Source: Candidatus Accumulibacter jenkinsii
GTDB taxonomy: Bacteria > Pseudomonadota > Gammaproteobacteria > Burkholderiales > Rhodocyclaceae
DNA length: 64,000 nucleotides
Assembly (NCBI GenBank): GCA_036625225.1
Contig: JAZKUF010000005.1
Coordinates: forward strand, 35,553 to 99,552
Direction: 5' to 3'
Under the pieces are notes generated by a model. It saw only the letters and a list, made by a program, of their open reading frames with translations. It was not told where the DNA came from and did not search any database. Every line of letters starts with the position of its first letter. Position 1 is the first letter of the stretch. The translations under genes were made by a program, and so were the position numbers. Positions 1 to 33,601 of the stretch are shown here, one piece after another.

Positions 1-1117
1 AGGCATGGTGCCGATGAGGATCCTCATCGCCGAACCAGGGACATTGAATCTCGGCGAGTTTTACCAATCGTCCGGAGGCCTCAGGCGCCGGCTCGAGCTG
101 CTCGCCAACACGGCGGACCTGCTCGCGCGCCTTCACGCCGTGCCGCTGGTTTACGCCGACGTCTCGCCGAACAACGTGTTCATCTCGGATACGGCCGAGG
201 CGAGCGAGGTCTGGCTGATCGACCTCGATAATCTCGACTATCTCTCCGTGAACGCGCCCGGGATATTCACGCCTGGCTTCGGTGCGCCAGAGGTCGTGAC
301 GCGCCGCGCAGGGGTCTCGACCCTCTCCGACTCCTACTCCTTCGCCGTCCTCGCGTTCTGGGTCCTCACACAGCAGCACCCGTTTCTTGGCGACTACGTC
401 GAGGAGGGCGGATGGGATGACGACGGCGACCAGGATCGCGAGCAACTCGCGTTTCGCGGCGAGCTACCGTGGATCGAAGACAGCGCGGACGACTCCAACC
501 GCACTAATAAAGGGGTCGCGCGCCACCTCGTGCTCTCGATACCCCTTAAAGAGCTGTTCCAGCGAACCTTTGAAGCTGGTCGAAAAGATCGTCTGGCGCG
601 ACCGAGCATGGCCGAGTGGGCCGAGGCGCTCCGTTGTGCAGCCGATCGCGTCGTCTCTTGCAGGAGCTGCGACTCTTCGTTCGATGTGACCGCTCGCAAG
701 TGTCCGTTTTGCACGGCGAGTCCTAGCCCGTCGTTCATCCACATGCAGGTGAACCGTTGGGACCCCGAGTTCGACGACGCGGCCGGGGCATCTGCGGTCA
801 GCACCCGCGGCGCCGTCTGGCACAAGATGATCGACGTCATGAAGGACAGCGTTGTGCTCCGTCATGTTGTCGAGCCTGTTCTCGCAGACAGAGATGACGC
901 GCCGGTCCTCCGCGTGCGAGTCTTGCGGAGCGGCATCGCCATCGAAGCTCTAGCGAACCAAGAGGTCCACGTGGTCCTTGGAGGCCGCATGCTGCGCATG
1001 GGGGCCGAGATCAAACTGCCACTGCCCAAGGCTGGAAACGAAGCGATTCTTCACTTCGGCCCGCTGGACCGCCCCCACCGCATGGCTGTCCTCCGGCTCT
1101 ATGCGGAGGAAACGTGA
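1..1117 (+). CDS. Hanks-type Ser/Thr protein kinase-like protein, 5'-truncated by the window edge, with a C-terminal zinc ribbon and beta-rich tail
   Basis: ORF 5..1117 starts mid-kinase; no glycine loop or VAIK lysine is in the window. Catalytic-loop-like 'YADVSPNNVF', DFG-equivalent 'LIDLDNL', 'GFGAPE' (APE motif), then 4-Cys ribbon 'CRSCDSS...CPFC'. Stop overlaps the next start (GTGA, 1114-1117). Confidence 0.7.
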   Translation, partial: GMVPMRILIAEPGTLNLGEFYQSSGGLRRRLELLANTADLLARLHAVPLVYADVSPNNVFISDTAEASEVWLIDLDNLDYLSVNAPGIFTPGFGAPEVVTRRAGVSTLSDSYSFAVLAFWVLTQQHPFLGDYVEEGGWDDDGDQDREQLAFRGELPWIEDSADDSNRTNKGVARHLVLSIPLKELFQRTFEAGRKDRLARPSMAEWAEALRCAADRVVSCRSCDSSFDVTARKCPFCTASPSPSFIHMQVNRWDPEFDDAAGASAVSTRGAVWHKMIDVMKDSVVLRHVVEPVLADRDDAPVLRVRVLRSGIAIEALANQEVHVVLGGRMLRMGAEIKLPLPKAGNEAILHFGPLDRPHRMAVLRLYAEET

Positions 1118-4100
1118 AGATCGAACAGGTTCCCTACGGCCAGATTGAGAGCATTCGACTTAGGTGGACGTCGGCGAGTGGGACGCTTCCAAGCTCAGTC
1201 GTGCCTGGTGCCGAGGCGGTGCTTCAGTTCTCTGAGCGCGAGGCGCAGGTGACGCTTCGGATTGGTGGAGATGTCTTGGGCATTCAAGGCGATGGTCGAA
1301 AGCATGAGGTCCTGCTCGCCGACCTATGCACGCGGCACTTGCCTCGTCTGGCTTGGGTCGTCAATGCAGCAGCCCAAGTTATCACGTTGCAGGTCCACAC
1401 GTTCCTGCGAACCCTGACGCTGCCGCCGATTGAACTCGGCGTCGACGAGAAGGTGCTGGACGCGCTGGCGCGGATCGACCGTAGGCTCGCCTCGCCGGAG
1501 CGTGCGCTGCAATGGCTGGAGGAGCAGTTCCTGCTCGACGGAGAGAGCGGCAGGCGAGGGTTTGCGACGGCGGAGTCCAAAACCGGTGTCTTCGCGCTCT
1601 TTGGCCGGACGACGCGGGCGTTCATTCGGGGGGTGAAGCGCTCGGGCTCCACCGAGGGTCTGCTCGTCGATCGCGTCGCTCGCGGGCGCGGTCAGGGCGG
1701 AGAACAGCTCGCTCTGGTGTCGGGGGATGTACGGTTTATCGATGCAACTGTCGCGGGGGAGCTCCGCGCCGATGCAGCAGCTCAGCTTTCGTCTCTGGTC
1801 ACTGCTGGGTCGAGCTTCTTGGACCTGTGGAGCCGCTACGGAGCGATGGAGAACGAAGCGGCGTTGCGCAGGGCGCGGAGGGCTGGTTGGCTCAAGTACG
1901 AACACGTCGAGTCGCTCCCGGACGGACGGTATCGCTTCTCGCTCGCGAACGACTGCACCCTCGAGGATGCGGACCAGTTCAAGCGCACGCTCACCGAGGA
2001 GCAAGGGCTCGGCGTCGAAGCCGTCGGCGAGGTCCCCGAGGTGCTCACGCGCGAGATGTCGTGGGCCGAGTATGACCAGCCTCGCCCGAAGGACGCTCCG
2101 TCGCCTAGGACCTTCGACGGACACGTGGAACTCCACCGGCGAGATCGCACTATTACGCTGGTCCAGCGGCAGAGCGACGAGGGCACTCCGCCGGACACAG
2201 GGGCGCTGGTCGTCTCCCTGCATGGAGACAAAACGCGGCTGAAGCGCCGGTCTGAGGCCGAAAACGCCATCCGTGGAAACACCAACCCGATGCCCCAACT
2301 CCGATATCTGTTGGAAGGGCTGGAGGTTCCGGTCCCTCGCTGTGGCGACATCAAGCCCGTGACGCCCAACGTGAGGCGGAAGGTGTTCGGGACGCGCAGC
2401 CCCACGCCGACGCAGGAGAAGGCGCTTTGGGTTGCACTCAATACGCCGGACATCGCGCTAATCCAAGGCCCGCCGGGCACAGGAAAGACGACAGTCATTG
2501 TCGCCCTCGTTGAGCGGCTTCAAGAGGTCTGGGACACGCAGGACGGCGTCCAGGGCCGTCTACTGCTGAGCGGCTTCCAGCACGACGCTGTCGAGAACGC
2601 GATTCAGCGCATGAACGTGAACGGACTCCCTCCCATCAAGTTCGGCGGTCGAGCGAACAACGCCGAGGATGCGGACAGTGTCGACGTGACGATCGACAGG
2701 TGGTCCGGCGAACGCAGCGCGGAGATTCGCAAGAACCTCCCGCCACAGCCCGCTTCAGTTCTGAAGAAGGAGCTCTCCGAGCTGGTGCAGGGCTATTTTC
2801 TGGCGCCGGGCACGCTCGAACACACGGCGTCCTTGCTTCAAAGTGTCGCGACACGCGTCCATGGCGCGGTGCCCGCAGCGCTCGTCGACCGCATCGTCGC
2901 GCTTGCACGAGAGCTGTTCGAGCGTGCGCGAGCGGCACGCGGTGGAGACCCGGACCACGAGCGCCTCGTCCGCTGCGTGCGCGGTCTGCGCTGCGACGTG
3001 CGTTCCTTCGCCGATGATGGAGCACGAAATGCTGTCCGGCTCGATCGCGAGTTTGCCCGCTCAGGGCGTAGAGGCGAGCAAGCGAAGACGCTGCTCGAGA
3101 CTGCCTCGCGATGGAGCGGGACTGGGATCCCTCCGTTCCTCGACGACCTTCGCGTGCTTCGCCGACGGCTGTTGCTTGATCTACTCCCTCCTGATCGCAC
3201 CGAGGACACCATCCCGCGCGTTCGCACCGATGTCCTCGAGTTGCTGAGCGAGGTGCGTGATCACCTCGAGCAGTGTCAGAACACGACGCGAGACGCGGCA
3301 AACGAGGCGACGTGGAGGTTCCTCTCGGCGCTCGAAGGGGAGCCAGAGGCCGTCAAGTTCGCCGTCATCTCGTACACATCGGTGTTCGCTGCGACCTGCC
3401 AGCAGTCGGCAAGGCAGGAGCTTGCAACGCTCAAGGGCTCCGAGGGCTACGACACCGTCGTCGTGGATGAGGCCGCGCGCGCGATGCCGCTCGACCTTTT
3501 CATCCCAATGGCCCGCGCAAGGCGACGGATCGTGCTCGTAGGCGACCACCGTCAGCTCCCTCACATTCTCGACCAAGAGCTTGAGCGCGAACTCGAGGAG
3601 GCGCTGTCAGATGGCAAAAGCGCGGGAGAACGCACGGGCGAAATGCTGAAAGAGAGCCTCTTCGAGCGACTCTTCAAGGATCTCGGGGATCGAGAGAAGC
3701 GCGACAGAATCCCTCGCGTGGTCACCCTCGACGAGCAGTACCGCATGCACCCGGTGCTGGGGCAGTTCGTCAGCGACCAGTTCTACAAACCGCACGGCGA
3801 GGCCTTCAGGTCGCCCCTTCCTGCTTCGAACTTCGTTCACTCGCTGCCCGGCCATGGCGGACCGGCATCGTGGCTCAATGTGCCGCACAAACTTGGCCCT
3901 GAGCGTAATGGACAAAGCAAGTCGCGTCCTGTCGAGGCGCAGGCTATCGTTGCAGAGTTGAAGCGGCTCATGGATTCGACGGAGGGCCGCGAACTTACCT
4001 TCGGCGTGATCTCCTTCTACAAGCAGCAGGTCAAGGTGATCGAGGATGCGCTCGTGGAAGCCGGGATCGTCGCTCGAACGGACGAGACGACGGAGATCGT

Positions 4101-4410
4101 TGTCCCCTACCGGGAGTTGCCGTTCCCCAATGGTCGCGTCGCGGAGCGCCTCCGGTTCGGCACCGTCGACGCTTTCCAGGGCATGGAGTTCGATGTCGTG
4201 TTCCTCTCGATGGTCCGCAGCAATCCCCGCAGGGTCTTCGGGCACGTCACCTCTCCGAACCGTCTCTGCGTGGCGATGAGCCGTCAGAAGCGGCTCCTGA
4301 TCGTTGCAGGCGACGACGGCATGCTCCGCGCGGACAATGCGCCGAAGGCGATCAGCCCCCTGGTCGAGTTCTACAAGTTGAGCGAGGTGCGCGATGCCGC
4401 CCGTGTTTGA
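1114..4410 (+). CDS. Superfamily-1 helicase, Upf1/Dna2-like (AAA_11/AAA_12 layout), with an unassigned ~450-aa N-terminal region
   Basis: Walker A 'GPPGTGKT', Walker B 'VVVDEAARA', 'GDHRQLPH', 'LDEQYRMH', 'GTVDAFQGMEFDVVFLS', 'VAMSRQKRLLIV'. GTG start overlaps the kinase stop. The 3' end overlaps the next gene by 17 nt. Confidence 0.85.
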   Translation: MKIEQVPYGQIESIRLRWTSASGTLPSSVVPGAEAVLQFSEREAQVTLRIGGDVLGIQGDGRKHEVLLADLCTRHLPRLAWVVNAAAQVITLQVHTFLRTLTLPPIELGVDEKVLDALARIDRRLASPERALQWLEEQFLLDGESGRRGFATAESKTGVFALFGRTTRAFIRGVKRSGSTEGLLVDRVARGRGQGGEQLALVSGDVRFIDATVAGELRADAAAQLSSLVTAGSSFLDLWSRYGAMENEAALRRARRAGWLKYEHVESLPDGRYRFSLANDCTLEDADQFKRTLTEEQGLGVEAVGEVPEVLTREMSWAEYDQPRPKDAPSPRTFDGHVELHRRDRTITLVQRQSDEGTPPDTGALVVSLHGDKTRLKRRSEAENAIRGNTNPMPQLRYLLEGLEVPVPRCGDIKPVTPNVRRKVFGTRSPTPTQEKALWVALNTPDIALIQGPPGTGKTTVIVALVERLQEVWDTQDGVQGRLLLSGFQHDAVENAIQRMNVNGLPPIKFGGRANNAEDADSVDVTIDRWSGERSAEIRKNLPPQPASVLKKELSELVQGYFLAPGTLEHTASLLQSVATRVHGAVPAALVDRIVALARELFERARAARGGDPDHERLVRCVRGLRCDVRSFADDGARNAVRLDREFARSGRRGEQAKTLLETASRWSGTGIPPFLDDLRVLRRRLLLDLLPPDRTEDTIPRVRTDVLELLSEVRDHLEQCQNTTRDAANEATWRFLSALEGEPEAVKFAVISYTSVFAATCQQSARQELATLKGSEGYDTVVVDEAARAMPLDLFIPMARARRRIVLVGDHRQLPHILDQELERELEEALSDGKSAGERTGEMLKESLFERLFKDLGDREKRDRIPRVVTLDEQYRMHPVLGQFVSDQFYKPHGEAFRSPLPASNFVHSLPGHGGPASWLNVPHKLGPERNGQSKSRPVEAQAIVAELKRLMDSTEGRELTFGVISFYKQQVKVIEDALVEAGIVARTDETTEIVVPYRELPFPNGRVAERLRFGTVDAFQGMEFDVVFLSMVRSNPRRVFGHVTSPNRLCVAMSRQKRLLIVAGDDGMLRADNAPKAISPLVEFYKLSEVRDAARV

Positions 4411-6619
4411 TCGCACGACGCCGGTCGTGGATTTCGGCGCCACGTCGTTGCCGTTCAAGCGCGGGGCTCGTCGATGGCTGGTGTGGCCCGCGCTCGCGTA
4501 CAAGGTCCTTCTTCCGTCTCGGGGCAACCCGCCGTTCAACGTACTTCAGCGCGCCGCGCTCGACATGTGTCGAGCGGGGGTCCGGGACGCCGAGGAGATC
4601 TCGCGCCGCCTCTCGCTCCATTTGGACTTGGTCGCTTTCGTGATCGAGCAACTCGTCACCATCGGCATGCTCGATGAGGCGCGCGTACCGACGCACCGGG
4701 CGCTGCGCCTGATGAACGAGGAGGACGAACCCAGTGAGTTGGAGGACGCCGGCTACGTCTTCGTCGATGTGGTTGATGGGAGACGCGTCTGGCCGCGCGT
4801 CCACCGAGGAGGCCTACCAATCGTCGAGGCTGAGTTCGAGCAGTCCAAGGCCAAGTTCCAGCGGGGCACCCTGGGCCACCCGGAGGATGTCTTCGCCAAC
4901 GTAGTGTGGCCAGAAACCGGGGCACGGTCTATCGCGCCGAGCGCGTACGAGGCGCAGAAGTCTGCCCGACATCACGCTCGCCGATTGCGCGCCTTCCGAC
5001 GTGAGGTCTCTCCCGGCGGAGGCTCCGGGGGAGCCCTAGATACTCTCAAGGCTGGAGGGCTACGTGTCGTCGATGTGGAGCCGGAGCCCATTTTCGTGGC
5101 GGCCTGTGTGTTTCTGCCGAAGGATGTGCGGCAGCGCTCCTGGTTGATCACGGATCCCTTGGGGCTCGGTGTCAGCGACGTGCTTCGGGCCGGGGTGACC
5201 AAGCTCGCCAAGGAAGGGAAGTACGGCCTCGCGGAGTTGCTGAAAAAGGTCGCAGGCGACGCTTGGCACGTCGATGAGGGAGATCTCGCACTGTACTTGG
5301 CTGAGGCTAAGCAAGCCGCTACCGAGCGCGTCGCCCGTCGCCTCGGCGAGGCCGCGAGGCTGCTCCCCCCCGATGCACTGGCACGTCTCGCCGATGCCGA
5401 CGTGCGCCTCGAAGGAGTGCAGACGGCCAAGCCAATCGAAGACTTCCTCGGCAATGCGTACGCGGCCCTTGAGAGCGTATTTGGCTGGCTGGTGTCGCTC
5501 TTCCCGGACCCGAGCCTCTTCTCAGTGCTAGGTAACAACGCGCCCGAGAACGCGACGCTACTCCGACGAATCGCTGATCAGGTCGGCTTCGCTGCCTCAC
5601 AGCGCATACTGCCTCTCCTGAGCGTCACCCGTGGCATCGTGAAGGGGGCGATCTGTTTCGGCAACAAGACCTTCCCGGGCCGACTGGCTGCGACGCTGCT
5701 GGCGGCGCAGCGCAACGGAGACCACCCGCTCGCCACTTTGGCCGCGCGCGAGCCCGACGCGCTGGAGTTCTTCGCTGAGATGGGAAAGCGCAGAATCGAC
5801 GCCTCGCACGACACCTCGGCGGTCCCGAGCGTCGAGATCGCGGTCGAGATGAAGGACCGCTTGTTCGCGGTCCTACGGGCGCTGGTTGGTGCTGGTCCAG
5901 TGGACGTGGAGACCGACGCACAGGCGCCATCATGGGGGGGCGACCTGCTTCTGCGCGTCCGAGCGCGGGCTGAACAGGCCTCCGAGGGGTATCCAGGGCT
6001 CGTTGAACGTCCCGATCTGCGTGCGCGCGTGATCGAAATGCACCACGCAGCGCTGCTCGTGAAGTTGCTCGCAGGGTCCGCAGCCACGTCCTCGGAAAAG
6101 TTGCTCGCAGGGTCCGCAGCCACGTCCTCGGAAACCTTGAGTACGCGGGCTCGCGACGCTGTTGTGGCTCTCACCATCGCGATGGAGGCGACCTTCGCAG
6201 CGATCGAAGCAGAGGCTTCGACGCCATCCGAGGTCGCGCAGACGATCTCGGATGACCGGGAGCGAAACGCGACGCTCCTAGCGTCTGCGGCCGTCGCGGT
6301 CGGCTTCGAGGTCGAAACGTCGGGGCAACTCCCCAAGGCTCTTACCCACGCAAAAGCTAACCGTATGCGGCGGGCTGCGCAGGGTCAGAGGGAGACGTTG
6401 TCGGCGCGCGTTGCTGTCCAGTTGTTTGCAGCGCACATGAAGGCAGACCATCCGCTCCGCGAGGTCGCGAAGCGGCTTCCCTCCTTGCTTCGGGACGTGG
6501 GTCGCATCGTCGATGCCCGCGGGCATGGAGATGATGTCGTCGTCACGGCATCCGAAGTCGCCGAGATCGAGACGATGGTTGCAAACGACATTCGGACGAT
6601 GCTCGAAGCGATTGATTAA
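4394..6619 (+). CDS. Hypothetical protein with N-terminal wHTH-like segment and two HEPN-like R-x4-6-H helices (candidate RNase)
   Basis: 'EMGKRRIDASHDTSAVPSVEIAVEMKDRLFAVLRAL' (codons at 5789-5809) and C-terminal 'DVGRIVDARGHGDDVVVTASEVAEIETMVANDIRTMLEAI' (6503-6526) look like two copies of one helix-motif-helix unit. N-terminal 'NVLQRAALDMCRAGVRDAEEISRRLSLHLDLVAFVIEQL' looks wHTH-like. Translationally coupled on both sides. Confidence 0.55.
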   Translation: MPPVFDRTTPVVDFGATSLPFKRGARRWLVWPALAYKVLLPSRGNPPFNVLQRAALDMCRAGVRDAEEISRRLSLHLDLVAFVIEQLVTIGMLDEARVPTHRALRLMNEEDEPSELEDAGYVFVDVVDGRRVWPRVHRGGLPIVEAEFEQSKAKFQRGTLGHPEDVFANVVWPETGARSIAPSAYEAQKSARHHARRLRAFRREVSPGGGSGGALDTLKAGGLRVVDVEPEPIFVAACVFLPKDVRQRSWLITDPLGLGVSDVLRAGVTKLAKEGKYGLAELLKKVAGDAWHVDEGDLALYLAEAKQAATERVARRLGEAARLLPPDALARLADADVRLEGVQTAKPIEDFLGNAYAALESVFGWLVSLFPDPSLFSVLGNNAPENATLLRRIADQVGFAASQRILPLLSVTRGIVKGAICFGNKTFPGRLAATLLAAQRNGDHPLATLAAREPDALEFFAEMGKRRIDASHDTSAVPSVEIAVEMKDRLFAVLRALVGAGPVDVETDAQAPSWGGDLLLRVRARAEQASEGYPGLVERPDLRARVIEMHHAALLVKLLAGSAATSSEKLLAGSAATSSETLSTRARDAVVALTIAMEATFAAIEAEASTPSEVAQTISDDRERNATLLASAAVAVGFEVETSGQLPKALTHAKANRMRRAAQGQRETLSARVAVQLFAAHMKADHPLREVAKRLPSLLRDVGRIVDARGHGDDVVVTASEVAEIETMVANDIRTMLEAID
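6062..6133 (+). repeat. Perfect 36-bp tandem duplication (2 copies) inside the CDS
   Basis: 'aagttgctcgcagggtccgcagccacgtcctcggaa' occurs at 6062-6097 and again at 6098-6133, encoding KLLAGSAATSSE twice, in frame. Confidence 0.95.
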
Positions 6620-6635
6620 GGAGAAATCGAAGACC

Positions 6636-9071
6636 ATGAGCGGCCTATACGAAGGAACCACCACTGCCGGAGCCAATACAAAGGGCGCTAATACTGCGCT
6701 CGACGTCAACGCGGCGGTTCGCGTCAAGCAACTCGACGCGCGTGAGCAGTCCTTGACTGCAAGGGAGCACACGCTAAAGGAGCTCGAGCGACAGATCAAG
6801 GACCAGGCTACCTCACTTAAGGAACGTGAGGCGGAGGTCGAGGCTGCGGAGTCGAAGACCCAGCGCGACCTCGCCGATCTCGCGAAACGCCAGAAGCAGG
6901 TGGCAGAGACCGAGAGCTCCATTGAGGCGCGCGCTCGTGACTTGGCTCAGCGTGAGATCGAGGCGAGCGAAGGATTCGCCTCCAAGAACCGTGAAGCGCT
7001 CACCGCGCTCACGAAGACTCACGCGTCATTGCGCGCCCAGTCGGAGCGTCTGCAGTCCGAGTTGGATGCCGCCCGGATAAAGGGCATCGAAGACCTCGAG
7101 AAGCGGCTCGCCGATGAGCGACGAACCCGCACCGAGGCTCTCGACGCTGATATTCAAGCGGATCGCAAGCGTCACATCGCAAAGCTCGCTGCCGAGGGCG
7201 CAACGCAGGATGTGGCGCTTGCTGAACAGAGGGCGCGCTTCGCCAAGGAGCAGCAGACCGCGCTTGAGGAGATCGAGCGAGAGCGCGTTCGTCTTGCTGA
7301 CCTGGAGGCCGAGCTTCGCCACAGGCTCGGCGACCTGCGCTGGAAGGAGGAGGACCTCGCGGGGTACCGCTCTGGCATCGACCGGTCCATTGAGGAGCGG
7401 TCTCGCGACCAAGTGGCGTCGTTGGAGCGCCAGTTGGACGCGCTGCGCGAGGACCACAGACGGGACCGTGACCTGGTCATCTCGCTCGAGTCTCAGTTGG
7501 CAGCGTCGCGCGACCTCCTGACCCGATTCGGAGACGACCCCGCCGAGATCGAGAAGCGCATCGCGCAGCAGGCGAAGAAGATCAGCGACCTTGAAAAGGA
7601 GCTGCTCCGTCGTCCAAGCGCAACCGACAAGGAACTCTTGGTCACCCTGCAAGAGCAGGAGCGTGTCTGGGCGGCTGAACGAGACCGGTTGGTTCGTGAG
7701 ATCACACAGCTCAAGGCTGAGCAGAGCCGCTGGCTGACCGGTGTCGCCGACCTCGAGCAGCAACGGGAACGACGCGAGGTGGCAGAGCGTCGGATCGAGG
7801 TGCTTGCTGGAGAGATGGAAAAGTACAGGGCGGACGTCGACCGGATGCGTGCGCTATATCAGAGCCCCGCAGAGCGGGCGGCACTGGTCGGGCGCATCGA
7901 GGATCCGTGGCGTACTGATTTCAAACGAGCCAAGGGCAGCACGCCGAGGGAACTCGACTGGCTCAACGATATCGTGGCCAAGTGCGAATACAGCGGCATG
8001 CGTTTCCCGAAGCGCCTGGTTCACGCTTTCCATACGTCGCTGAAGGCCGCAGAGCTATCACCACTGACACCACTGACGGTGCTCGCCGGCGTGAGCGGCA
8101 CCGGAAAGTCGGAACTTCCTCGCCTTTACTCGCGTTTCGGTGGGCTTGGGTTCCTCTCACTCGCCGTCCAACCAAACTGGGACGGCCCGCAGTCGCTGTT
8201 CGGTTTCTTCAACTCGATCGACAACCAATTCAACGCAACAACGGTCCTGCGCGCGATGGTGCAGGCGCAGCATGACCCTGACCACGAGACCTACAAACAC
8301 GGGCTCTCGGACCGCCTCCTGTTGGTTTTGCTCGACGAGATGAATCTCGCTCACGTTGAGCAGTACTTCAGTGACCTCCTTAGCCGCCTCGAGCAGCGTC
8401 GTGGGGAGAGCCGAGACGTCACGCTCGATATCGACCTCGGTTCCAGAGAGCCGCCGTACCAGTTGCGCCTTGGTCGGAATGTGCTCTGGGTGGGCACGAT
8501 GAACGAGGACGAGACGACGAAGGCTCTCTCCGACAAGGTCATCGATCGCTCGAACCTGTTGTACTTTCCGCGTCCGCGCGAGCTTCACAGTCGTACGGAG
8601 GTTACCCTCGGTGCGGAGTCGCCGTTGCTGGCGGAGAGTGCGTGGCGCGAGTGGCTGCAGCTTCGGTCGCCGTTCACCTCGGACGAGCTCAAGCCCTTCA
8701 AGGATGGGCTTCAGGAGATCAACTCGCGGCTGGAATACGTCGGCCGCGCCCTCGGACACCGCGTCTGGCAGTCGGTTGAGTTCTACATAGCCAACCACCC
8801 CGAAGTGATCGACGCACGCGCGCGGAAGGACGAGGACGCGCTCCAGCGCGAGATGCGACGTGCCTACGAGGATCAGCTCGTCCTCAAGGTGATGCCGAAG
8901 CTTCGTGGCATCGAAACCTCCGGCAAGTCGAGAAACGAGACCCTCGATCCGATCAAGAAGCAGCTCGCCGAGTTTGGCACAGGCTTGTCCAAGGACTTCG
9001 ACATCGCGTGCCGCGTTGGACATGGTGCGTTCCTCTGGAACAGCGCGACGTACCTGGAGAACGCTGAATGA
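6636..9071 (+). CDS. Coiled-coil / McrB-family AAA+ GTPase fusion
   Basis: ATG at 6636 follows 'aaggag'. About 430 aa are E/R/L/A/Q-rich coiled coil ('LKELERQIKDQATSLKEREAEVEAAESK...'). Then McrB-type core: 'LAGVSGTGKSELPRLY', 'LLVLLDEMNLAHVEQYFSDLLS', 'VGTMNEDETTKALSDKVIDRSNLLYF'. Stop overlaps the next start (ATGA, 9068-9071). Confidence 0.8.
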   Translation: MSGLYEGTTTAGANTKGANTALDVNAAVRVKQLDAREQSLTAREHTLKELERQIKDQATSLKEREAEVEAAESKTQRDLADLAKRQKQVAETESSIEARARDLAQREIEASEGFASKNREALTALTKTHASLRAQSERLQSELDAARIKGIEDLEKRLADERRTRTEALDADIQADRKRHIAKLAAEGATQDVALAEQRARFAKEQQTALEEIERERVRLADLEAELRHRLGDLRWKEEDLAGYRSGIDRSIEERSRDQVASLERQLDALREDHRRDRDLVISLESQLAASRDLLTRFGDDPAEIEKRIAQQAKKISDLEKELLRRPSATDKELLVTLQEQERVWAAERDRLVREITQLKAEQSRWLTGVADLEQQRERREVAERRIEVLAGEMEKYRADVDRMRALYQSPAERAALVGRIEDPWRTDFKRAKGSTPRELDWLNDIVAKCEYSGMRFPKRLVHAFHTSLKAAELSPLTPLTVLAGVSGTGKSELPRLYSRFGGLGFLSLAVQPNWDGPQSLFGFFNSIDNQFNATTVLRAMVQAQHDPDHETYKHGLSDRLLLVLLDEMNLAHVEQYFSDLLSRLEQRRGESRDVTLDIDLGSREPPYQLRLGRNVLWVGTMNEDETTKALSDKVIDRSNLLYFPRPRELHSRTEVTLGAESPLLAESAWREWLQLRSPFTSDELKPFKDGLQEINSRLEYVGRALGHRVWQSVEFYIANHPEVIDARARKDEDALQREMRRAYEDQLVLKVMPKLRGIETSGKSRNETLDPIKKQLAEFGTGLSKDFDIACRVGHGAFLWNSATYLENAE

Positions 9072-12000
9072 AGAAGGTTCGCGCAGCCCGCGACCGCGCT
9101 GCTCCCAAGACGGCGGGGCCGCCGCCGCTCCCGGAGCTCGACGGATTGGACGCCCTTGCGGCGTCCGACGCGCCGACCGTGACGGCGGCTTGGTGGATAT
9201 CCCTTCAGGTTTCGGAGCACGTCTTCTCAATGATCGCGCACGGCGATCCGCGCACTGGCGAACCCCTTTCGAGACCTCTAACGGAGATCCTTCGCGACGT
9301 TCGCCACGCGACCGCGACCGGAAGTCGACCGTTTCCCAGCGATCGCCTCCTCGGCGCCGCCGAGTTCGCCATCGACTCCCTGGAATACCTGCTCGACCGG
9401 CATCGACATCGAATCGTCAGGGTCCACCAGCAACTCCCGTTCCATCAGCTTCGCGAGGTCGACACGCGATCGATGGCGTGGCTCGCACGACAGCCCGGAA
9501 GGAACATCCGCGAGAAGCTCTCGGGCCGCACCCATGCGTTGGGCGCAAAGCGCGACGTGTCCGTCGACACGACCGAAAACCGGCTCCTCCGGTCGTTCGC
9601 CAAGCTCCTCGTTCAGCGCGCCAGCAATCGCCTGGAGAACAGGGACGCCTACGACGGCACGACCGAGGATGAAGAGCGCATACGTCGGCTGGAGGAGTGC
9701 GTTCGCCTCTGCGATGAGCGGATGAGACGGTCCGAGCTCGCCGATGTTCCGACGCTGACCCGACTGCAGCCGAACAATGTTCTATTGAATGACCCGCACT
9801 ACTCGCGGGTGTTTCGCGCATGGAAGTGGCTGCGCGATGGTGAGGAAGCCTTGCGTGGCTCTTGGAAGGATGTCCTCCAGCGTACCCGCGTCCTTCTTTA
9901 TTGGATGACGGCGGCACAACTTGTGACACGTGAGCGAGTGGTGGTCGCGGAGACGTTCGGGCGCGTCCTCACGGGGCGGGGCGATGAGCGACACATCGGC
10001 ATCGAGGTGCTTGGTGCCGAGGCGGTTGGTGCGAACTGGTTCTTGAACCCACCGCTTCACTTCTTGGTGCTGCCCACCGGGGGCAACAATGCGGTGTTCC
10101 GTATCCGCGTCGCGCTCGAGGGCGAGTACATCCTCGTACACGTCGCTTCGCTGGGCGGGAGAGGGCTCCTTGTTGATGAGTCGGTCGCTACGCTTGCCTT
10201 TGAGGTGCGGCCCACTTCGGAGCGTCTCCTGCCTCAGCGCGGGATTGGGATCGCCGTGGATGGCCTCGAGGTCTCAGTTCGAGGGACGGACCGCGGCTAC
10301 GCCGACCTCGCGGGGCTGACGCCCCTCGCAACGCAGGTGGCTCTGCAGATCCTCGAGCGTTGCGGCGGGAACCCCAATAACGAGCGCCAGGAGCACACCT
10401 CTGCTGAAGTGGGAGACGGCGCGCGCATCGGCATCGAGATTGGCACCGCGTCGCTGCATGTCGGCGCGCAACATAAACTGCCGCTGGTGTCGGCACCGTG
10501 GGCATTGGCTCTCGACCTGCCGGGGGACACGGGCGGCATCGAGTGGCTTGAAGGCCGTTCAGAACGAGAGATGGTCCTTGGTGCTGCCGGTCGGTCGCTG
10601 TGGAGCACCGGCGACATCTTGGATACGGACGGGAAGGCCGACGCAGGGATGGTTGCCTTGGCAGCGGACCGCCTGCTGGGTAGCCTTGCGTCTGAGCTAC
10701 AGATACCGACCGACGCACGGGTCGCCTATGCCGTCCCCGATGCAGTCGATGAATTCTCGCAGCGCAGCCTGCGGAGCGCGTTCGGGGGGGCGTTCCATCG
10801 GCCGGTTCCGGTGTGGAGAAGCGTTGCGGCCGCGATGTCCTGGGCGTCGGAGGCGGGGAAGCGCGGCCCGCGCTCAGGAGAGTCGGTGGTCGTCGTCGAC
10901 ACGGAGTTTAGTGGCGTCTCGCTGACAGTGCTCACCGCCTGCCACGACAAGAAGCTCGAGCAGGCACATCCGTCGTCACGCGGAATCTACTGGGAACGCA
11001 AGCCGCCACTTCCGCCCGACGAGCAGTTGGAGACGCTCGGTTGGCCGCGTGTACTTGGCTCCTACGCGCGGATGTTGGTGGAGCGTGAGCTGAGTTCGCA
11101 GGCTCCCGAGGTCCAAGAGCGCGTTGTCGAGGATCTCCTTCGCAGTGGCAAGATCGGTGCTCTCGTAGCGCGCGGCGGGTCGATCTTCGTGCAGGTGCCG
11201 TCGAGCCAGAGAACGATGCCCGACGTCGTGGAATTCTTTGAAGACCCCGCGTGGTTCGACGACGAGGTGGCGGGCTGGGGCCAACGACTGGATCAGAGCC
11301 TGCAGAACACGCTTGCACAACTCGACGGCCATCGGGTGCTGCTCATCGGTGGCCCCTGCTCCTACAGCCGGTTTCACCGCGGAACGCACTCCGGACAAAT
11401 CAAGACGTTCGATGTGGCCAAGGGGTTCGGCTTACTCACACTAGATGCGATCGGCGTAGACGTCTTCTTTCACATCAATACGACTCGTGTTCCTCGTAAT
11501 GTCACCCTAGTCCCCAGGCTTGCAGTTGAGTGCGACTTTGCAAGGGGGAAGAAGGGGCTGGAAGCTCGACAAGTCGCTCCTGTGCAGCAAGGCAAGTCGC
11601 GGCCGCACGTTCCATCGCTCGCGATATGGTTGCTACGGCGCACCTTCGTCATGCCTCAGGACTTGGCGCGTGGAGCCCATGAGTGCTTGCTCCGAATGGA
11701 CACCGGCTCGCCGACTTGGCGTGAGTGGCTGCCCGAGCTGTCGCTGGAGGTCGTACGCGACGGGCACTTCGGCGAACTCCCCCTACTCGAGCGAGGCACG
11801 TTCGTCGACCCATTCCTCGGCGACGCCGTGCAATTCACAGTGCCGGAACACCTCACGCTGGGACGCGGACATCGTTGGTTCTCTTTCCCGTTGCTCGTTG
11901 GTCGCCAGGGACGCCGCCCTGTCGCGTGGGAGGCGCGGTTGGACTCGCCCGCGTTCCCCCTCGACCACGACGTCCGGGCGCGGCTGCGGCTGTCATACCG

Positions 12001-13111
12001 GTACGGACTCGACAATAGCTATGAGCTCACCGTGGAGCCTGCGTTGCCGCATGATGCTCCATTCGCCAGAGTGGAAGCCAAGTGGATCAAGGGCGGCGAG
12101 ATCGCCACCGCGTTGGTGGCGCGGGAGCCGTTGCCGCTCGAACGTAGGCCGTGGGATCGCGTGGGCACGGAGTCCTTCCTTAATGCCGCACGCTCCCTTC
12201 ACCTGCATGATGAACGCAATGCGAAGCGCCTCTTCGCGCTGACGCGCGCATGCTGGTCGGAGGGGCGAAGCCTCGCAACAGCGCCAGCGGACGTGCACCG
12301 AATGTTCGACGGCTTCCGCGACCAATTGCTGAATGCGCTTCCGCCGAAGCTGAGCGTTCATGACATGCCACGTGCGCTCGAAATCCTCTCGTTGCTTCAC
12401 GAGGACGCTCCGACTGAAGTCATCGGCTGGCTGCTCGAACTCGATGCGCCGGCTGGTGATGGGCGGATACCGGTGCCCCTTTATCGGAAGACGGCAGGCA
12501 TGCTCGCCATGGTTGTCGGAGATGGTCAGGGTGAGCGTGTGGCTGTGCTTAACCGATTGCTCGATCATCTCCAGCGGCACGGCCACAGCAACACTTTCGA
12601 CCCGCAGTTGACTGGTATCACCATGAGGGCGCTGGGCAACGCAGCGTGGAGACATCCAGGCTTCATCGGCTCACTGGCCTCCACACAGGACGGCGCCGCG
12701 CTCGTCATCGCTTCGTGTCGACGCTCGCTGAATGGTCTTCTTGCACGCATTCCAGTTAAGGTTTCGTCCGATGAGGAGCGCCAGAAGATCTCGCGGCTTT
12801 ACGGCACGCAGTTCCGGGATGCCTGTGAGTTGCTGCTGGTGCTGATGGCCGTCGCCCCATCGGCCCCAGTGGTTGCGCCGCTACGCGCCGGCTCTCCATC
12901 AGCCGACGGTTTCGCGAAAGTTGTTCGGCAGATAGACGCTCGGCTTTCCGCCCTTGAGGCCTTGCCCTCCTGGCGAGTACGCCTCGATGTGAATGTGCCA
13001 CCAGCGCTTCATCGGATGTCGGCAGTAACATTCGCTCTGAATACGTACCTTGTCGAGGGCTCGGGTGCGAATTTGGTACAGGTTGCTGGTGCTGAATTCG
13101 ACGTCAGTTGA
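9068..13111 (+). CDS. 1347-aa fusion: McrC-N/DUF2357-like region, degenerate Hsp70/actin-like ATPase fold, cold-shock domain, ~550-aa helical C-terminal region; no PD-(D/E)xK motif seen
   Basis: 'DVSVDTTENRLLRSFAKLLV' (McrC/DUF2357-type DTxENR motif). Hsp70-like 'RIGIEIGTASLHVG', 'AYAVPDAVDEFSQRSL...VWRSVAAAMSW', 'VVVVDTEFSGVSLTVL', 'VLLIGGPCSY'. CSD 'GQIKTFDVAKGFGLLTLDAIGVDVFFHINT' (RNP1/RNP2-like). Confidence 0.7.
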   Translation: MKKVRAARDRAAPKTAGPPPLPELDGLDALAASDAPTVTAAWWISLQVSEHVFSMIAHGDPRTGEPLSRPLTEILRDVRHATATGSRPFPSDRLLGAAEFAIDSLEYLLDRHRHRIVRVHQQLPFHQLREVDTRSMAWLARQPGRNIREKLSGRTHALGAKRDVSVDTTENRLLRSFAKLLVQRASNRLENRDAYDGTTEDEERIRRLEECVRLCDERMRRSELADVPTLTRLQPNNVLLNDPHYSRVFRAWKWLRDGEEALRGSWKDVLQRTRVLLYWMTAAQLVTRERVVVAETFGRVLTGRGDERHIGIEVLGAEAVGANWFLNPPLHFLVLPTGGNNAVFRIRVALEGEYILVHVASLGGRGLLVDESVATLAFEVRPTSERLLPQRGIGIAVDGLEVSVRGTDRGYADLAGLTPLATQVALQILERCGGNPNNERQEHTSAEVGDGARIGIEIGTASLHVGAQHKLPLVSAPWALALDLPGDTGGIEWLEGRSEREMVLGAAGRSLWSTGDILDTDGKADAGMVALAADRLLGSLASELQIPTDARVAYAVPDAVDEFSQRSLRSAFGGAFHRPVPVWRSVAAAMSWASEAGKRGPRSGESVVVVDTEFSGVSLTVLTACHDKKLEQAHPSSRGIYWERKPPLPPDEQLETLGWPRVLGSYARMLVERELSSQAPEVQERVVEDLLRSGKIGALVARGGSIFVQVPSSQRTMPDVVEFFEDPAWFDDEVAGWGQRLDQSLQNTLAQLDGHRVLLIGGPCSYSRFHRGTHSGQIKTFDVAKGFGLLTLDAIGVDVFFHINTTRVPRNVTLVPRLAVECDFARGKKGLEARQVAPVQQGKSRPHVPSLAIWLLRRTFVMPQDLARGAHECLLRMDTGSPTWREWLPELSLEVVRDGHFGELPLLERGTFVDPFLGDAVQFTVPEHLTLGRGHRWFSFPLLVGRQGRRPVAWEARLDSPAFPLDHDVRARLRLSYRYGLDNSYELTVEPALPHDAPFARVEAKWIKGGEIATALVAREPLPLERRPWDRVGTESFLNAARSLHLHDERNAKRLFALTRACWSEGRSLATAPADVHRMFDGFRDQLLNALPPKLSVHDMPRALEILSLLHEDAPTEVIGWLLELDAPAGDGRIPVPLYRKTAGMLAMVVGDGQGERVAVLNRLLDHLQRHGHSNTFDPQLTGITMRALGNAAWRHPGFIGSLASTQDGAALVIASCRRSLNGLLARIPVKVSSDEERQKISRLYGTQFRDACELLLVLMAVAPSAPVVAPLRAGSPSADGFAKVVRQIDARLSALEALPSWRVRLDVNVPPALHRMSAVTFALNTYLVEGSGANLVQVAGAEFDVS

Positions 13112-13583
13112 TTGCCAAATATCTGCCGTTCAGTTGGCATTTGCCTTGTGACTGCAAAGGCCGAACAGCGACGCCGTCGTCCGAGCCTCGTGGTCGGCAG
13201 GTATGTTATCAGAAAGCGGCCCTTGCTCATCAAAACATCATCAGGCCGTTTTGGTCGTTAGCAGAATTTCAAGGTGCCCGGTAGCCGCCGGCGACGTGAA
13301 TGTTTCGGTGATCCACCAGGCCTATGGAAGTTCGGTAGCGTTATGCGGGCCAGCCGCGCGCGAGTGGCTCCGAGCGGGGGGCACCAGGCGCACCTGGGGT
13401 TCCGGCCTGACGGAACCTGTCTCGACGTCAAACAGATCAGCCCGTGAAACAAGCGCAGGGCTTTTGCCATCAGCGTAACAAACTGTTTTATTGAGTCTTT
13501 TAGCTATTTTAAAAAATTGTTTCACGGCCCAGCGGCGTTCCAGAGGGCGAGAGCAGAAAATTCCCCTCCTCTGCCGCTTCACA

Positions 13584-13607
13584 TAGTCATTATGGGGATA
13601 ATGACTA
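13584..13607. promoter_or_regulatory. Perfect 10-bp-arm palindrome (candidate operator), conserved in the duplicated copy at 44690-44715
   Basis: TAGTCATTAT-gggg-ATAATGACTA. The partner copy is CCAGTCATTA-tttttc-TAATGACTGG. Arm core AGTCATTA/TAATGACT is conserved while the spacer differs. Confidence 0.35.
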
Positions 13608-13811
13608 AAAGTTGCGGCGAAGCGTTATATTTAAAACGTTAAACGTTCGTTAATAGACGATATTTCAGGTTCGTGGGGGGTGCCCTTGAGGATGGCGGGG
13701 TTGGTCTTTGCTTGGTGAGCCCTGTCATCAATAGCAGGCGCCCCAGTCGCCGCTATCAACAAGTTGTATTGGCGGTTTGCCTCTCCCGCAGCCATATTGA
13801 GATAAAGGTTT

Positions 13812-13840
13812 TTGAGCTTTGAAGTCCTGTCACCCAGATT
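13812..13840 (+). promoter_or_regulatory. Candidate sigma-70 promoter of the PON-like gene
   Basis: TTGAGC, a 17-nt spacer, then CAGATT, about 60 nt upstream of the ATG at 13899. It lies in the best-conserved 40-mer shared with the inverted copy (44221-44260) and overlaps the hairpin CCTGTC-N10-GACAGG. Confidence 0.3.
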
Positions 13841-13898
13841 CGACAGGGCCTGAAGCACGGCGGGGACGGTGGTCCAAAGCCACGGCGAAGGGGAAGAG

Positions 13899-14979
13899 CA
13901 TGCAAATACTGAGCGTCAGGGGAGCCGCTGCGCCGGCAACCTCTCCCACCTCTTGGCCCAAAAATCTCGCCATTCCCGGTCCGGAGGACTTTGTCATCGA
14001 CCGGGCGGCCCACATTGCCTATCTCTCTTCACAGGACCGTAGCGGCTCCGAAGCGGTGATGGGTGGTCTGCTGCGTATGAAAGCAAACCGATGGGAGGTG
14101 CGCGGCAGCATCTACCAGATGGACCTGAACGACCCTGACCTGTCACTTTGGCAACTGGCCGACGACTTTCCCAAGAACAAGGGTTTCCATCCGGTGGGAA
14201 TGGATCTGCACGTCAATCCCGATGGAAGCCGACGTTTGTTCATTGTGAACTGGCCTGGCCCCAACCAGTACGCCGTCGAAATTTTCGACCTCGAGACCAA
14301 CAGACTGCGGCATGTGCGCACGGTCGCGGGCAAGGCGCTGACCTGTCCGAACGACATTGCAGCCGTCGATGGCGAGCGCTTCTATGTCTCCAACTCGTTG
14401 TCTCTGCATCCCTCCCTGCAGCAGATGGAACAGCTGCTCGGTCTACCGACGGGTACGGTCGTTTACCACGATCCGGACGAAGCGGAACTACAGGTCGTGG
14501 CGACCGGCATCACCTACGCTAATGGCATCGCACTTGACCGGCGCAGGGGCAGGATTTACGTCGCATCCTTCACAAACGGTCGCATTCTCGAGTTTTTCTG
14601 GGATCCACTCCAGCCAACCGCCCCCTTGCGGCGATGCAGCGCACTTACGTTGGATTTCTTGCCCGACAACCTGGTCTGGGAAGACGAGAACACTCTTTGG
14701 GTAGCCGGTAGCCAGTTCTTAAGTGGCCTGTTCTTCATGCTCCAGTTGAGTGATCGCGCCCCCTCGTATGTCGCCAGAATTGCGCTTGCCAGCCCGGACC
14801 TGGTCGATCAGGAGCCCCTCAGTCGTGCGCGGCCAGAGATGATGTACCGCGATGATGGCGGCGAGATCCCGGCCTGCAGCGTCGCGGCCCCCTACGAATT
14901 GAACGGCGAGCGCCGGCTGATTATCGGTTCCTGCTTTGCCGATCACGCGCTCGTCTCCCTTACCTCGCCGGCTCCTTGA
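13899..14979 (+). CDS. Paraoxonase/arylesterase-like (PON/SGL six-bladed beta-propeller) hydrolase, possible lactonase
   Basis: 'FHPVGMDLHVNPDGSRRLFIVNWP...AVEIFDLETNRLRHVRTVAGKALTCPNDIAAVDGERFYVSN' parallels the PON1 core 'FNPHGISTF...LLVVNHP...VELFKF...LNDIVAVGPEHFYGTN'. ATG at 13899 follows 'aagggga'. Confidence 0.7.
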
Positions 14980-15416: not shown

Positions 15417-17606
15417 ATGCCTGAAGCCTCACGTAATGGGACTTTGCCAGCGAGCAGTGATGCATTGGTATCTAGCTGCTGGTATACAACTAGCCCAGAA
15501 CATCTGGCTGATGAGCTATGTCGGCTTGATGTCCGCATTAGTCTCGCTGCGCTGCGGCGCTGTCCTGCCGTCTTTGCGGCGGAGCGCCCCGGGAGCGGTT
15601 CCGATGAGCAGGCGCTGCTCGCTGAACTGGGAAGACTCGACCGACACATCGATCTACAACGCGGGAACAGCGTCGAGCGTGGCCGGTTTCTCGGATTGCC
15701 ACACCTTGCCCGATTGTTTCGGCTCAGCCCCGTCGAGGAGCAACTGCTGCTGGCTTGTTTTGCACCAGAGGCGGATGCGCGCTATAGCAGGTTATACGGC
15801 GATCACGAGGGTAATTTGGCCGGCAGACATCCCACGGTCGCATTGCTGCTGGAGTTACTCGGCGAGGACCGCGAGACCCGAACCGTAGCGCGTGCAGCAC
15901 TTCGTGCCCAGTCACCGCTGTTCCACTACCGGCTGCTGCAACTGGTCGAGGCCGAGGCCGGTCCGTCGCCGGAGTTGTTGAGCCCCTTACGCATCGACCC
16001 GCGTATCGCTGCCTTTCTGTTGGAGATCTCGGGTATTGATGATCGCCTGGTGCCTTACGCCAGTCTGCAAATACCCCGTTCGCAGGTGGCGCCGTTGCCG
16101 GGCGGGGCGAGGTCAAGCGTGGACAGGATGACCGCTTTCGTCCGCCACCATCTTGCCGCCGGCGACGCATCCGCACCGGTCGTCTTTCATTTGCATGGGC
16201 ACGACACAGCGACAGGGCGCGCGGTAGTCCATAGCGTCTGCCGCGAGCTGTCTCTCGACCTGTTGAACGTAGACATGTATAAACTTGCCGCCGCCGGGCC
16301 GGCAGCAAGCGACCTGTTCTGGCTGGTGGGTCGCGAAGCCGTGCTCCAGCCAGCCGCCTTGTGCCTCGACAACTTTGACATCTGGGTTCAGGACAACGAC
16401 CAGACCGCCGCGCAGCGCGATGCCATATTCGGTGCGCTGCGGCACTTCTCCCAACTCACTTTCCTACTCGGCCGCGTCGCTTGGCAGCCCGGCCGACTGA
16501 GGAAAGATCTGCTCTATCTGCCGATTGAGCTGCCATTGCCGGACATCAACGCTCGTCGGTCGCTGTGGCAGGATCAGGCTGAGGCTCGTGGTATTCGCTC
16601 GGACCTTGACTATGGACAACTCGCGAGCCGCTACCGGTTTGACGCAGAAGAGATCAGTGACGTGCTCAATATAGCGGCCGGCATGGCCTATTGGCGCGAT
16701 CCCCATAGTGGGACCGTGACCTCCGACGACATCTCCTCCGCCTGTCGCGCTCAAGCTGCACCGCAGGCCGGATTTGCGGCGATACGGCGGATCCCCCGTT
16801 ACACCTGGAATGACCTTGTCCTGCCGCCCGATCATCTGCGCCAGCTGCATGAACTGTGTAACCAGGCCACTCACAGACACATCGTGCTCGGCGAGTGGGG
16901 ATTCGACCGCCGGCTGGCGTTGGGCAACAGCTTGAATGTCATGTTCAACGGTCCGTCAGGCACCGGGAAAACCATGGCCGTCGACGTCATCGCCAACGAT
17001 CTCGAGGTCGACCTCTACAAGATCGATCTGTCCCAGATCGTGAGCAAGTATATCGGCGAGACCGAGAAGAACCTCGACCGCGTATTTCGCGAGGCCCAAT
17101 CGAGCAATGCTATCGTATTTTTCGATGAGGCCGACGCCTTGTTCGGAAAACGTTCGGAAGTCAAAGACGCTCACGATCGCTATGCCAATATCGAAACCGG
17201 TTATCTGCTGCAGAAAATGGAAGAGCATGATGGCTTGGTGATCCTGGCCACCAACCTGCGCAACAACCTCGACGAGGCGTTTTTGCGGCGCATGCACTTT
17301 GTCGTCGAGTTTCCGTTTCCTGACGAGGTGCACCGCAGCAAGCTGTGGCAGGGACTGTTTCCGGACGAGGTGCCTTGCGGCGTAGACGTCGATTTTTCCT
17401 ATCTGGCGCGGCATTTCAAGGTGCCGGGCGGCAACATCCGGAATATCGCCGTATGTGCGGCGTTTCTGGCGGCTGCCGACCGTACGGAAGTGGGCATGCG
17501 GCACCTGATCCATGCCGCGCGGCGCGAATACCAGAAGCTGGGTTGCCCGTGCACAGCCACCGACTTTGGGCCCTACTACGAACTGATCAAGGCAAGTCAT
17601 GGCTAA
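15417..17606 (+). CDS. eCIS-associated AAA+ ATPase (Afp15/Pvc15-like)
   Basis: C-terminal AAA+ module 'NGPSGTGKTMAVDVIANDL', 'IVFFDEADALFGKRSE', 'VILATNLRNNLDEAFLRRMHFVVEFPFPD'. RBS 'gggagagg'. Stop overlaps the next start. Confidence 0.85.
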   Translation: MPEASRNGTLPASSDALVSSCWYTTSPEHLADELCRLDVRISLAALRRCPAVFAAERPGSGSDEQALLAELGRLDRHIDLQRGNSVERGRFLGLPHLARLFRLSPVEEQLLLACFAPEADARYSRLYGDHEGNLAGRHPTVALLLELLGEDRETRTVARAALRAQSPLFHYRLLQLVEAEAGPSPELLSPLRIDPRIAAFLLEISGIDDRLVPYASLQIPRSQVAPLPGGARSSVDRMTAFVRHHLAAGDASAPVVFHLHGHDTATGRAVVHSVCRELSLDLLNVDMYKLAAAGPAASDLFWLVGREAVLQPAALCLDNFDIWVQDNDQTAAQRDAIFGALRHFSQLTFLLGRVAWQPGRLRKDLLYLPIELPLPDINARRSLWQDQAEARGIRSDLDYGQLASRYRFDAEEISDVLNIAAGMAYWRDPHSGTVTSDDISSACRAQAAPQAGFAAIRRIPRYTWNDLVLPPDHLRQLHELCNQATHRHIVLGEWGFDRRLALGNSLNVMFNGPSGTGKTMAVDVIANDLEVDLYKIDLSQIVSKYIGETEKNLDRVFREAQSSNAIVFFDEADALFGKRSEVKDAHDRYANIETGYLLQKMEEHDGLVILATNLRNNLDEAFLRRMHFVVEFPFPDEVHRSKLWQGLFPDEVPCGVDVDFSYLARHFKVPGGNIRNIAVCAAFLAAADRTEVGMRHLIHAARREYQKLGCPCTATDFGPYYELIKASHG

Positions 17607-33599: not shown

Positions 33600-33601
33600 T
33601 C

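Follow-up and report, generated by a model that had tools for sequence, protein, structure and literature searches.

The window analysed here is a stretch of 64,000 nucleotides from Candidatus Accumulibacter jenkinsii (assembly GCA_036625225.1, contig JAZKUF010000005.1, positions 35,553 to 99,552 of the forward strand). The open reading frame (ORF) at window positions 4394-6619 is very likely cnuE from a Type III-A CoCoNuT (coiled-coil nuclease tandem), a gene predicted to encode the two-HEPN RNase effector. Type III-A CoCoNuTs were described computationally by Bell, Sahakyan, Makarova, Wolf and Koonin (eLife 2024, PMC11090510). An earlier prediction, made from the DNA letters alone, had read the 741-aa product as a possible Cas13-style tandem-HEPN RNase, with two R-x4-6-H motifs at R466/R467...H472 and R704...H711. 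The observation is partly confirmed, and the tandem-HEPN interpretation is supported. The forward-strand ORF is present with the translation quoted in the original prediction, and the quoted peptides lie at their codons, with R466 at nt 5789, H472 at nt 5807-5809, R704 at nt 6503 and H711 at nt 6524-6526. The product and 'hypothetical protein V5B33_18490' of Ca. Accumulibacter sp. UW20 share 100% identity.

A Type III-A system, as described by Bell et al., is composed of the TerY-P triad (VWA, PP2C and Ser/Thr kinase-zinc ribbon proteins), CnuH, CnuE, CnuB and CnuCD; the triad is frequent upstream of Type III-A genes and is not part of their core. CnuE, represented for Type III-A by ATV59464.1, is an elongated winged helix-turn-helix (wHTH) domain fused to HEPN RNase domains, which in Type III-A carry an RxxxxH and a C-terminal RxH motif. 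It is encoded directly downstream of CnuH, often in an overlapping frame. CnuH, which is UPF1-like, has a helical insert following its Walker A motif, and a RelE-like domain has been reported in this helicase. CnuB combines a coiled coil with an NxD McrB-like GTPase. CnuCD contains DUF2357, one or two CSDs, Hsp70-like nucleotide-binding and substrate-binding domains, and HEAT-like repeats, and has lost the PD-(D/E)xK nuclease. An RtcR-like sigma54 activator and a BrnT-like gene are also described for CoCoNuT loci.

The window locus agrees with this published description in the wHTH followed by two HEPN-like domains, the first with RxxxxH and the second with a C-terminal RxH. It also agrees in its neighbors: an overlapping CnuH, an NxD CnuB, a nuclease-less DUF2357-CSD CnuCD and a zinc-ribbon kinase. 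An RtcR-like sigma54 activator and a BrnT/DUF4258-like gene were seen upstream in related loci. Compared with the paper's description, the window copy shows no essential difference; its own features are the Ile that follows the catalytic-type Arg and a unique 12-aa duplication in its linker. The earlier suggestion that the gene replaces the nuclease missing from its McrC-like partner is also made by Bell et al., and the locus agrees with their system gene for gene.

A word-indexed search identified 85 homologs of the window protein, with identities of 39-82%, nearly all of them about 730 aa long and nearly all unannotated. When 1.84 billion representatives, clustered at 50% identity, were searched exhaustively with a profile, 1,208 of them matched at E <= 1e-3. 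They include a class of about 730 aa, which covers the whole profile, and a class of about 500 aa, which covers only positions 1 to ~500. These two-domain and one-domain classes correspond to the Type III-A and Type II CnuE of Bell et al. Conservation was evaluated in a close alignment of 39 homologs (39-84% identity) and in a divergent set of 73 two-domain representatives whose mutual identity does not exceed 50%.

Among the 73 representatives, no position anywhere in the protein is more conserved than H472 (100%), H711 (100%), R709 (99%) and R467 (97%), after which come E360 (96%), H444 (93%) and N386 (93%). In the close alignment, R467, H472 and R709 are invariant, H711 is present in 38 of the 39 homologs, and G710 is at least 95% conserved; among the representatives, G710 reaches 89%. 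The original prediction expected R466 or R467, H472, R704 and H711 to be invariant among orthologs. This holds for R467, H472 and H711 (97-100% of the 73), and not for R466, kept in 8 of 39 homologs, or for R704, kept in 24 of the 39 close homologs and in 18 of the 73 representatives. The reading of R704...H711 as a second motif of the Rx6H form was therefore rejected: R704 is unconserved and is not aligned or paired with R467, and the motif of the second domain is R709-G-H711.

By itself, the R-x4-6-H pattern carries little weight in so Arg-rich a protein. The window protein (67 Arg, 15 His) contains it ten times, compared with 4.1 +/- 1.9 times in shuffled sequences, most of the ten occurrences are unconserved, and R467/H472 alone is invariant at both positions. 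It is the comparison with homologs that makes the finding real. R545-x4-H550, located in the linker, was considered as a third site and rejected, as it is conserved among close homologs only (Arg in 24 and His in 13 of the 73 representatives).

A full-length AlphaFold2 (AF2) model of the protein was built on the 39-sequence alignment, with a mean predicted local distance difference test score (pLDDT) of 82.9 and a predicted template modeling score (pTM) of 0.61. The modeled chain has an N-terminal module with the wHTH and two all-α domains, residues 345-498 and 579-740, which are connected by a two-helix linker. Of the 64 family members scanned, 50 have a match to Pfam wHTH-PRTase_assc (best E 4.6e-08), and Foldseek finds local matches of the full-length model to MarR-type wHTH domains with probabilities of 0.98-1.0. 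Such matches would also be expected if the protein were chiefly a DNA-binding transcription regulator of the adjoining genes, with the helical domains serving as a sensor. We regard this as extremely improbable, since the wHTH accounts for about 60 of the 741 residues and it is the C-terminal R/H motifs that are conserved most strongly. Furthermore, the gene is located inside an operon, in translational overlap with the helicase gene, and related loci encode a separate sigma54 activator.

The first of the two all-α domains, modeled separately, reaches a pLDDT of 91.3 and is formed by nine helices. Helix 456-472 has R467-H472 at its C-terminus, and a loop then connects it to 480-498, the last helix. 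In the second domain, R709 ends helix 698-709, and G710-H711 open the loop to the last helix, 719-740. The internal duplication noted in the original prediction was verified with hhalign, which aligns the 39-homolog profiles of residues 335-505 and 575-741 over 138 columns (probability 98%, E 1.4e-13). The alignment pairs E360 with E598, N386 with N625, H444-P-L with H686-P-L, and H472 with H711. R467 is paired with V706, so the second copy lacks R-x4-6-H; its conserved Arg, R709, is two residues before H711.

The helical insert of domain 1 contains the conserved N386 (93%) and H444-P445-L (92-93%), neither of which we found mentioned in the available text of Bell et al. The domain-2 counterparts of N386 and H444 are 41% and 53% conserved among the representatives, and E598 is Glu or Gln in all 73 of them. 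Of the two copies, domain 2 is the more degenerate. With counterparts that are just 41-53% conserved, the two HEPN-like halves are probably functionally unequal.

The inter-domain linker of the window protein contains a perfect tandem duplication of 36 bp, for which Tandem Repeats Finder (TRF) reports 2.0 copies at 100% match. The duplication is absent from all 38 aligned homologs. It shares residues with the low-confidence segment 562-574, immediately ahead of the helix that opens HEPN-like domain 2, and may reflect either a recent microduplication or an artifact in the assembly of the metagenome-assembled genome.

HEPN domains are short, divergent helical bundles. The superfamily has been defined by a four-helix up-down core, an Rx4-6H motif where the penultimate helix ends or the loop that follows it begins, a polar residue (N, D or H) directly after the Arg, and an acidic residue conserved in the helical hairpin at the N-terminus; helices can be inserted between the core hairpins (Anantharaman et al. 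2013, PMC3710099). Domain 1 agrees with this description in the position of R467-H472 and in its inserted helices, and the RxH of domain 2 is located at the place equivalent to the domain-1 motif. The upstream acidic residue is represented by E360 and E598, in a context other than Ex3[KR]. The residue after R467 is Asp in 40 and Asn in 23 of the 73 representatives. The main reservation of the original prediction about the first motif, that a non-polar residue follows the Arg, is therefore removed for the family, with Asp or Asn in 63 of 73; it stands for the window protein, which has Ile468. Ile occupies this position in 17 of the 39 close homologs and is a peculiarity of the lineage.

Profile searches give weak links between domain 1 and HEPN families. 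A full-length Pfam scan of 64 family members matched HEPN_MAE_28990 once (8.5e-4) and HEPN_RiboL-PSP once. A scan restricted to the domain-1 segments of 49 members ranked three HEPN families highest among 24,736 Pfam models: HEPN_RiboL-PSP, matched in 4 of the 49 (best E 0.013), HEPN_Cthe2314 (0.0044) and HEPN_MAE_28990 (0.005). The HEPN_RiboL-PSP match in one member spans the RNxxxH stretch and the next helix. The convergence of sub-threshold matches on a single HEPN clan seems unlikely to be due to chance. The window protein and its sub-regions matched no HEPN model in Pfam, giving a weak wHTH match alone, and neither PADLOC nor NCBIfam contained a match for CnuE. Searches of PDB sequences with phmmer and hmmsearch, using the protein itself and two profiles, one of 64 family members and one of 49 domain-1 segments, identified no HEPN entry. 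The nearest match was a 'CRISPR-associated protein' (8y75/8y7f, E ~1.5), over the motif and the last helix.

Several observations weigh against the HEPN RNase reading. The window protein has Ile in place of N, D or H after R467, and the RxH of the second domain falls outside the Rx4-6H definition. Every Pfam HEPN match is below its gathering score, and HMMER searches of PDB sequences and Pfam gave nothing over the curated thresholds. Foldseek found no significant HEPN structure, either for the full-length model against PDB or for domain 1 against PDB and the viral structures of BFVD. The structural prediction places the motif at the helix end typical of HEPN domains, without a significant HEPN match of the fold. 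The best Foldseek E value was 0.58, and HepT (6m6u_H) was matched at E 2.3 with a probability of 0.09; as the HEPN fold is short and divergent, with an insert of about 80 residues here, we do not take this outcome as a negative one. Apart from the MarR-type wHTH, the full-length search against PDB gave long spurious alignments to membrane transporters. The Hsp70-like and HEAT part described for CnuCD was not found with phmmer or with a four-sequence profile against PDB, and no assay of any CnuE or Type III-A system was found in the searchable literature.

Part of this evidence would fit a duplicated domain that is not HEPN at all, that is, an unrelated all-α fold with its own Arg/His chemistry, such as another hydrolase or a ligand-binding domain. 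Even the domain-1 model, at pLDDT 91, drew no significant HEPN match from Foldseek, none of the sequence matches to HEPN families reaches its threshold, and nine helices exceed the minimal HEPN fold. Set beside the convergence of the sub-threshold matches and the HEPN-like placement of the motifs, we judge this explanation to be highly doubtful.

Another explanation accepts that the domains are HEPN-derived and holds that they do not cut. They would act as an RNA- or nucleotide-binding sensor or as a scaffold, and the output would come from another protein, for example the RelE-like domain of CnuH or an ancillary nuclease. The second motif reduced to RxH and the Ile after R467 in the window lineage are consistent with this, as is the lack of the Arg in about 40% of the one-domain relatives as aligned here, and non-catalytic HEPN domains exist (PMC3710099). 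In contrast, the R/H positions are kept in 97-100% of the two-domain class and are its top positions, the pattern expected of catalytic residues, and the core operon encodes no other recognizable nuclease. We therefore consider non-cutting domains unlikely, and prefer the reading of CnuE as an RNase.

By analogy, two HEPN domains of an RNase would form a metal-independent site from two R/H pairs. In CnuE, the two domains of a single chain most likely form the pair; domain 1 would be its fuller half (E360, N386, H444, R467 and H472), and domain 2 would contribute R709 and H711 to a composite site. The wHTH and adjoining helices might dock CnuE on CnuH, so that ATP-driven RNA translocation would feed the RNase. 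CnuB and CnuCD (GTPase and CSD), together with a VWA/PP2C/kinase switch, could sense infection and gate the activity. The output would be cleavage of phage or host RNA, leading to immunity or abortive infection. These steps are drawn from HEPN biochemistry and from the model of Bell et al., and evidence from other loci lends them limited support. We tentatively propose that one CnuE chain holds an asymmetric composite RNase site that is active only when CnuH threads RNA in, under the control of a TerY-P phospho-switch; we rate this as possible rather than probable. A helicase-coupled asymmetric site is hinted at by Bell et al.

The Type II CnuE of about 500 aa is homologous to the window protein over profile positions 1 to ~500, which comprise the wHTH and the first HEPN, and has the same helicase partner. 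It differs in having a single HEPN domain and a CnuC with an inactivated nuclease fold, whereas the window protein adds the C-terminal RxH domain. A seven-gene Type II CoCoNuT (Obs) of Pseudomonas aeruginosa is reported to protect this host against PP7 and LeviOr01, both RNA phages, and the DNA phage MPK7 (preprint 10.64898/2026.04.06.716636).

The comparison with Cas13 in the original prediction is retained as an architectural analogy. Both proteins have two HEPN domains in one polypeptide and a possible composite RNase site, and both are proposed to act in RNA-level immunity or abortive infection. CnuE has no sequence relationship to Cas13 and neither a CRISPR RNA guide nor a CRISPR context, its second motif is RxH instead of Rx4-6H, and its targeting is predicted to come from the helicase/GTPase complex. 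No PADLOC family, Cas models included, was matched at E<=0.01, and PDB sequence searches gave no sign of Cas13 homology. The neighbors are helicase and McrBC-like genes; no repeat-array search was made.

CnuE resembles HepT/MntA, Csm6/Csx1 and the RNase L/Ire1 KEN domains in an R(N/D)xxxH motif that ends the penultimate core helix, in the upstream Glu, and in the need for two HEPN domains. However, those proteins dimerize from single-HEPN chains, whereas the CnuE domains are fused and unequal. Compared with HEPN toxins, CnuE has a helical insert of about 80 residues with the additional conserved N386 and H444-P-L.

The helicase neighbor strongly matches MkoA models of the Mokosh system, which similarly pairs a superfamily 1 (SF1) RNA-type helicase with a nuclease. 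Mokosh, however, uses a phospholipase D (PLD) nuclease and has no McrBC-like pair, and CnuE matches no Mokosh model. Membership in Mokosh was rejected, as the helicase alone matches. PADLOC names CnuH as Mokosh MkoA (1.3e-89) and CnuB as the candidate PDC-M26A (5.2e-29), so automated defense annotation would mislabel the CoCoNuT as Mokosh or as a PDC candidate.

The features of the window are listed in Table 1. The five genes from 2 to 13111 form a tight operon in one direction. The kinase ORF matches Pkinase profile positions 105-209 and no others, which places the kinase N-lobe outside the window; the CxxC...CxxC motif of its zinc ribbon is CRSCDSSFDVTARKCPFC. Orthologous loci encode full-length kinases of 461-493 aa, preceded by PP2C and VWA genes, which at the present locus would fall beyond the window edge. 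The cnuH product matches AAA_11 (1.2e-30), with residues 433-816 spanning just 247 profile positions, as well as AAA_12 (2.5e-36) and the IGHMBP2 family (2.8e-43). The 3' end of cnuH overlaps the start of cnuE by 17 nt, and the overlap is identical in loci L001-L004.

The longest ORF of cnuB begins at 6513, within cnuE. The ATG at 6636 (MSGLYEG...) is likely the true start, because the orthologous cnuB genes of loci L001-L003 begin 10-16 nt past the cnuE stop codon. The cnuB product has SMC/Rad50 coiled-coil matches and a weak AAA_5 match (0.074), and contains the Walker A motif GVSGTGKS, the Walker B motif LLDEMN and the NxD signature TMNEDE, which is not of the NxxD type. The cnuCD start overlaps the cnuB stop by 4 nt. 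Its product matches DUF2357 (4e-12) and CSD (2.4e-07), and the CSD also matches PDB cold-shock proteins (3.4e-14); profile scans identified no nuclease domain in it, and no PD-(D/E)xK or DUF524 match.

The order of the zinc-ribbon kinase, helicase, cnuE, cnuB and cnuCD genes is preserved in three distant loci, from Rhodoferax antarcticus (46% identity), Burkholderia cepacia (46%) and a metagenomic contig (39%). Upstream of the operon, all three encode a sigma54 activator, a small ORF, a VWA protein and a PP2C phosphatase; the small ORF of the Burkholderia locus is DUF4258/BrnT-like. In the metagenomic locus (L002), cnuCD is followed at 18480-21966 by a DUF6861 protein and an AAA/AAA_lid_3 ATPase, which may be one of the Type III-A ATPase extensions of Bell et al., located at the 3' end.

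Table 1 Features of the window and the basis of their assignment
Feature	Position	Strand	Basis
3' part of TerY-P Ser/Thr kinase gene, C-terminal zinc ribbon; 5' end beyond window	2..1117	+	Pkinase and CxxC...CxxC
cnuH, UPF1/IGHMBP2-like SF1 helicase, large insertion after Walker A	1114..4410	+	AAA_11/AAA_12, IGHMBP2 family
cnuE, 741 aa: wHTH, HEPN-1, linker, HEPN-2 (very likely)	4394..6619	+	ORF translation, homologs
N-terminal module, residues 1-339: wHTH at ~50-110 within β-rich extension, then long helices	4394..5410	+	
HEPN-like domain 1, residues 340-500	5411..5893	+	weak Pfam HEPN matches, AF2 all-α
Motif R467-I-D-A-S-H472, canonical RxxxxH	5792..5809	+	conservation
Perfect 36-bp tandem duplication (KLLAGSAATSSE x2, 12-aa unit), inter-domain linker	6062..6134	+	TRF
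HEPN-like domain 2, residues 579-741, diverged domain-1 duplicate	6128..6616	+	hhalign
Motif R709-G-H711, shortened RxH	6518..6526	+	conservation
cnuB, long coiled coil and McrB-like GTPase, NxD branch	6636..9071 (likely start ATG 6636)	+	motifs, coiled-coil matches
cnuCD, 1,347 aa: DUF2357 (McrC N-terminal domain), one CSD, long C-terminal region	9068..13111	+	profile matches
Arylesterase/SMP-30-like β-propeller protein ORF, next after cnuCD	13819-14979		
WHD and AAA ATPase, eCIS cluster	15417-17606		
Tail sheath, eCIS cluster	18676-20139		
DDE_Tnp_1 transposase ORF, 618 aa, mid eCIS cluster	26158-28014		
Spike/baseplate-V OB protein, eCIS cluster	28707-29558		
Baseplate_J proteins, eCIS cluster	30474-34648		
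eCIS_core-domain protein	38912-42346		

The GC content drops from about 0.64 within the operon to 0.546 just past cnuCD (window 13001-14979), which marks the 3' boundary of the operon. Downstream of the CoCoNuT operon, the window contains an extracellular contractile injection system (eCIS) cluster of the PVC-like type (15417-42346), which the DDE_Tnp_1 transposase may interrupt.

The tandem-HEPN effector is already known as a computational prediction, and within its family the window locus is unremarkable. It adds little as a discovery, because the architecture, both motifs and the idea of a replacement nuclease are already in print in Bell et al. The locus provides an example of Type III-A that is clean and compact, from Candidatus Accumulibacter, the key organism of phosphorus-removing wastewater sludge, and the analysis supplies a residue-level list for mutagenesis: R467, H472, R709 and H711, together with E360, N386 and H444. 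CoCoNuTs are widespread, often central in very large defense superoperons, and predicted to restrict RNA rather than DNA; the one Type II locus of the 2026 preprint is alone in the searchable literature in having a phage phenotype. If the proposed mechanism is true, the asymmetric CnuE site would be a bacterial, guide-free, helicase-coupled analog of Cas13 or of RNA surveillance resembling nonsense-mediated decay.

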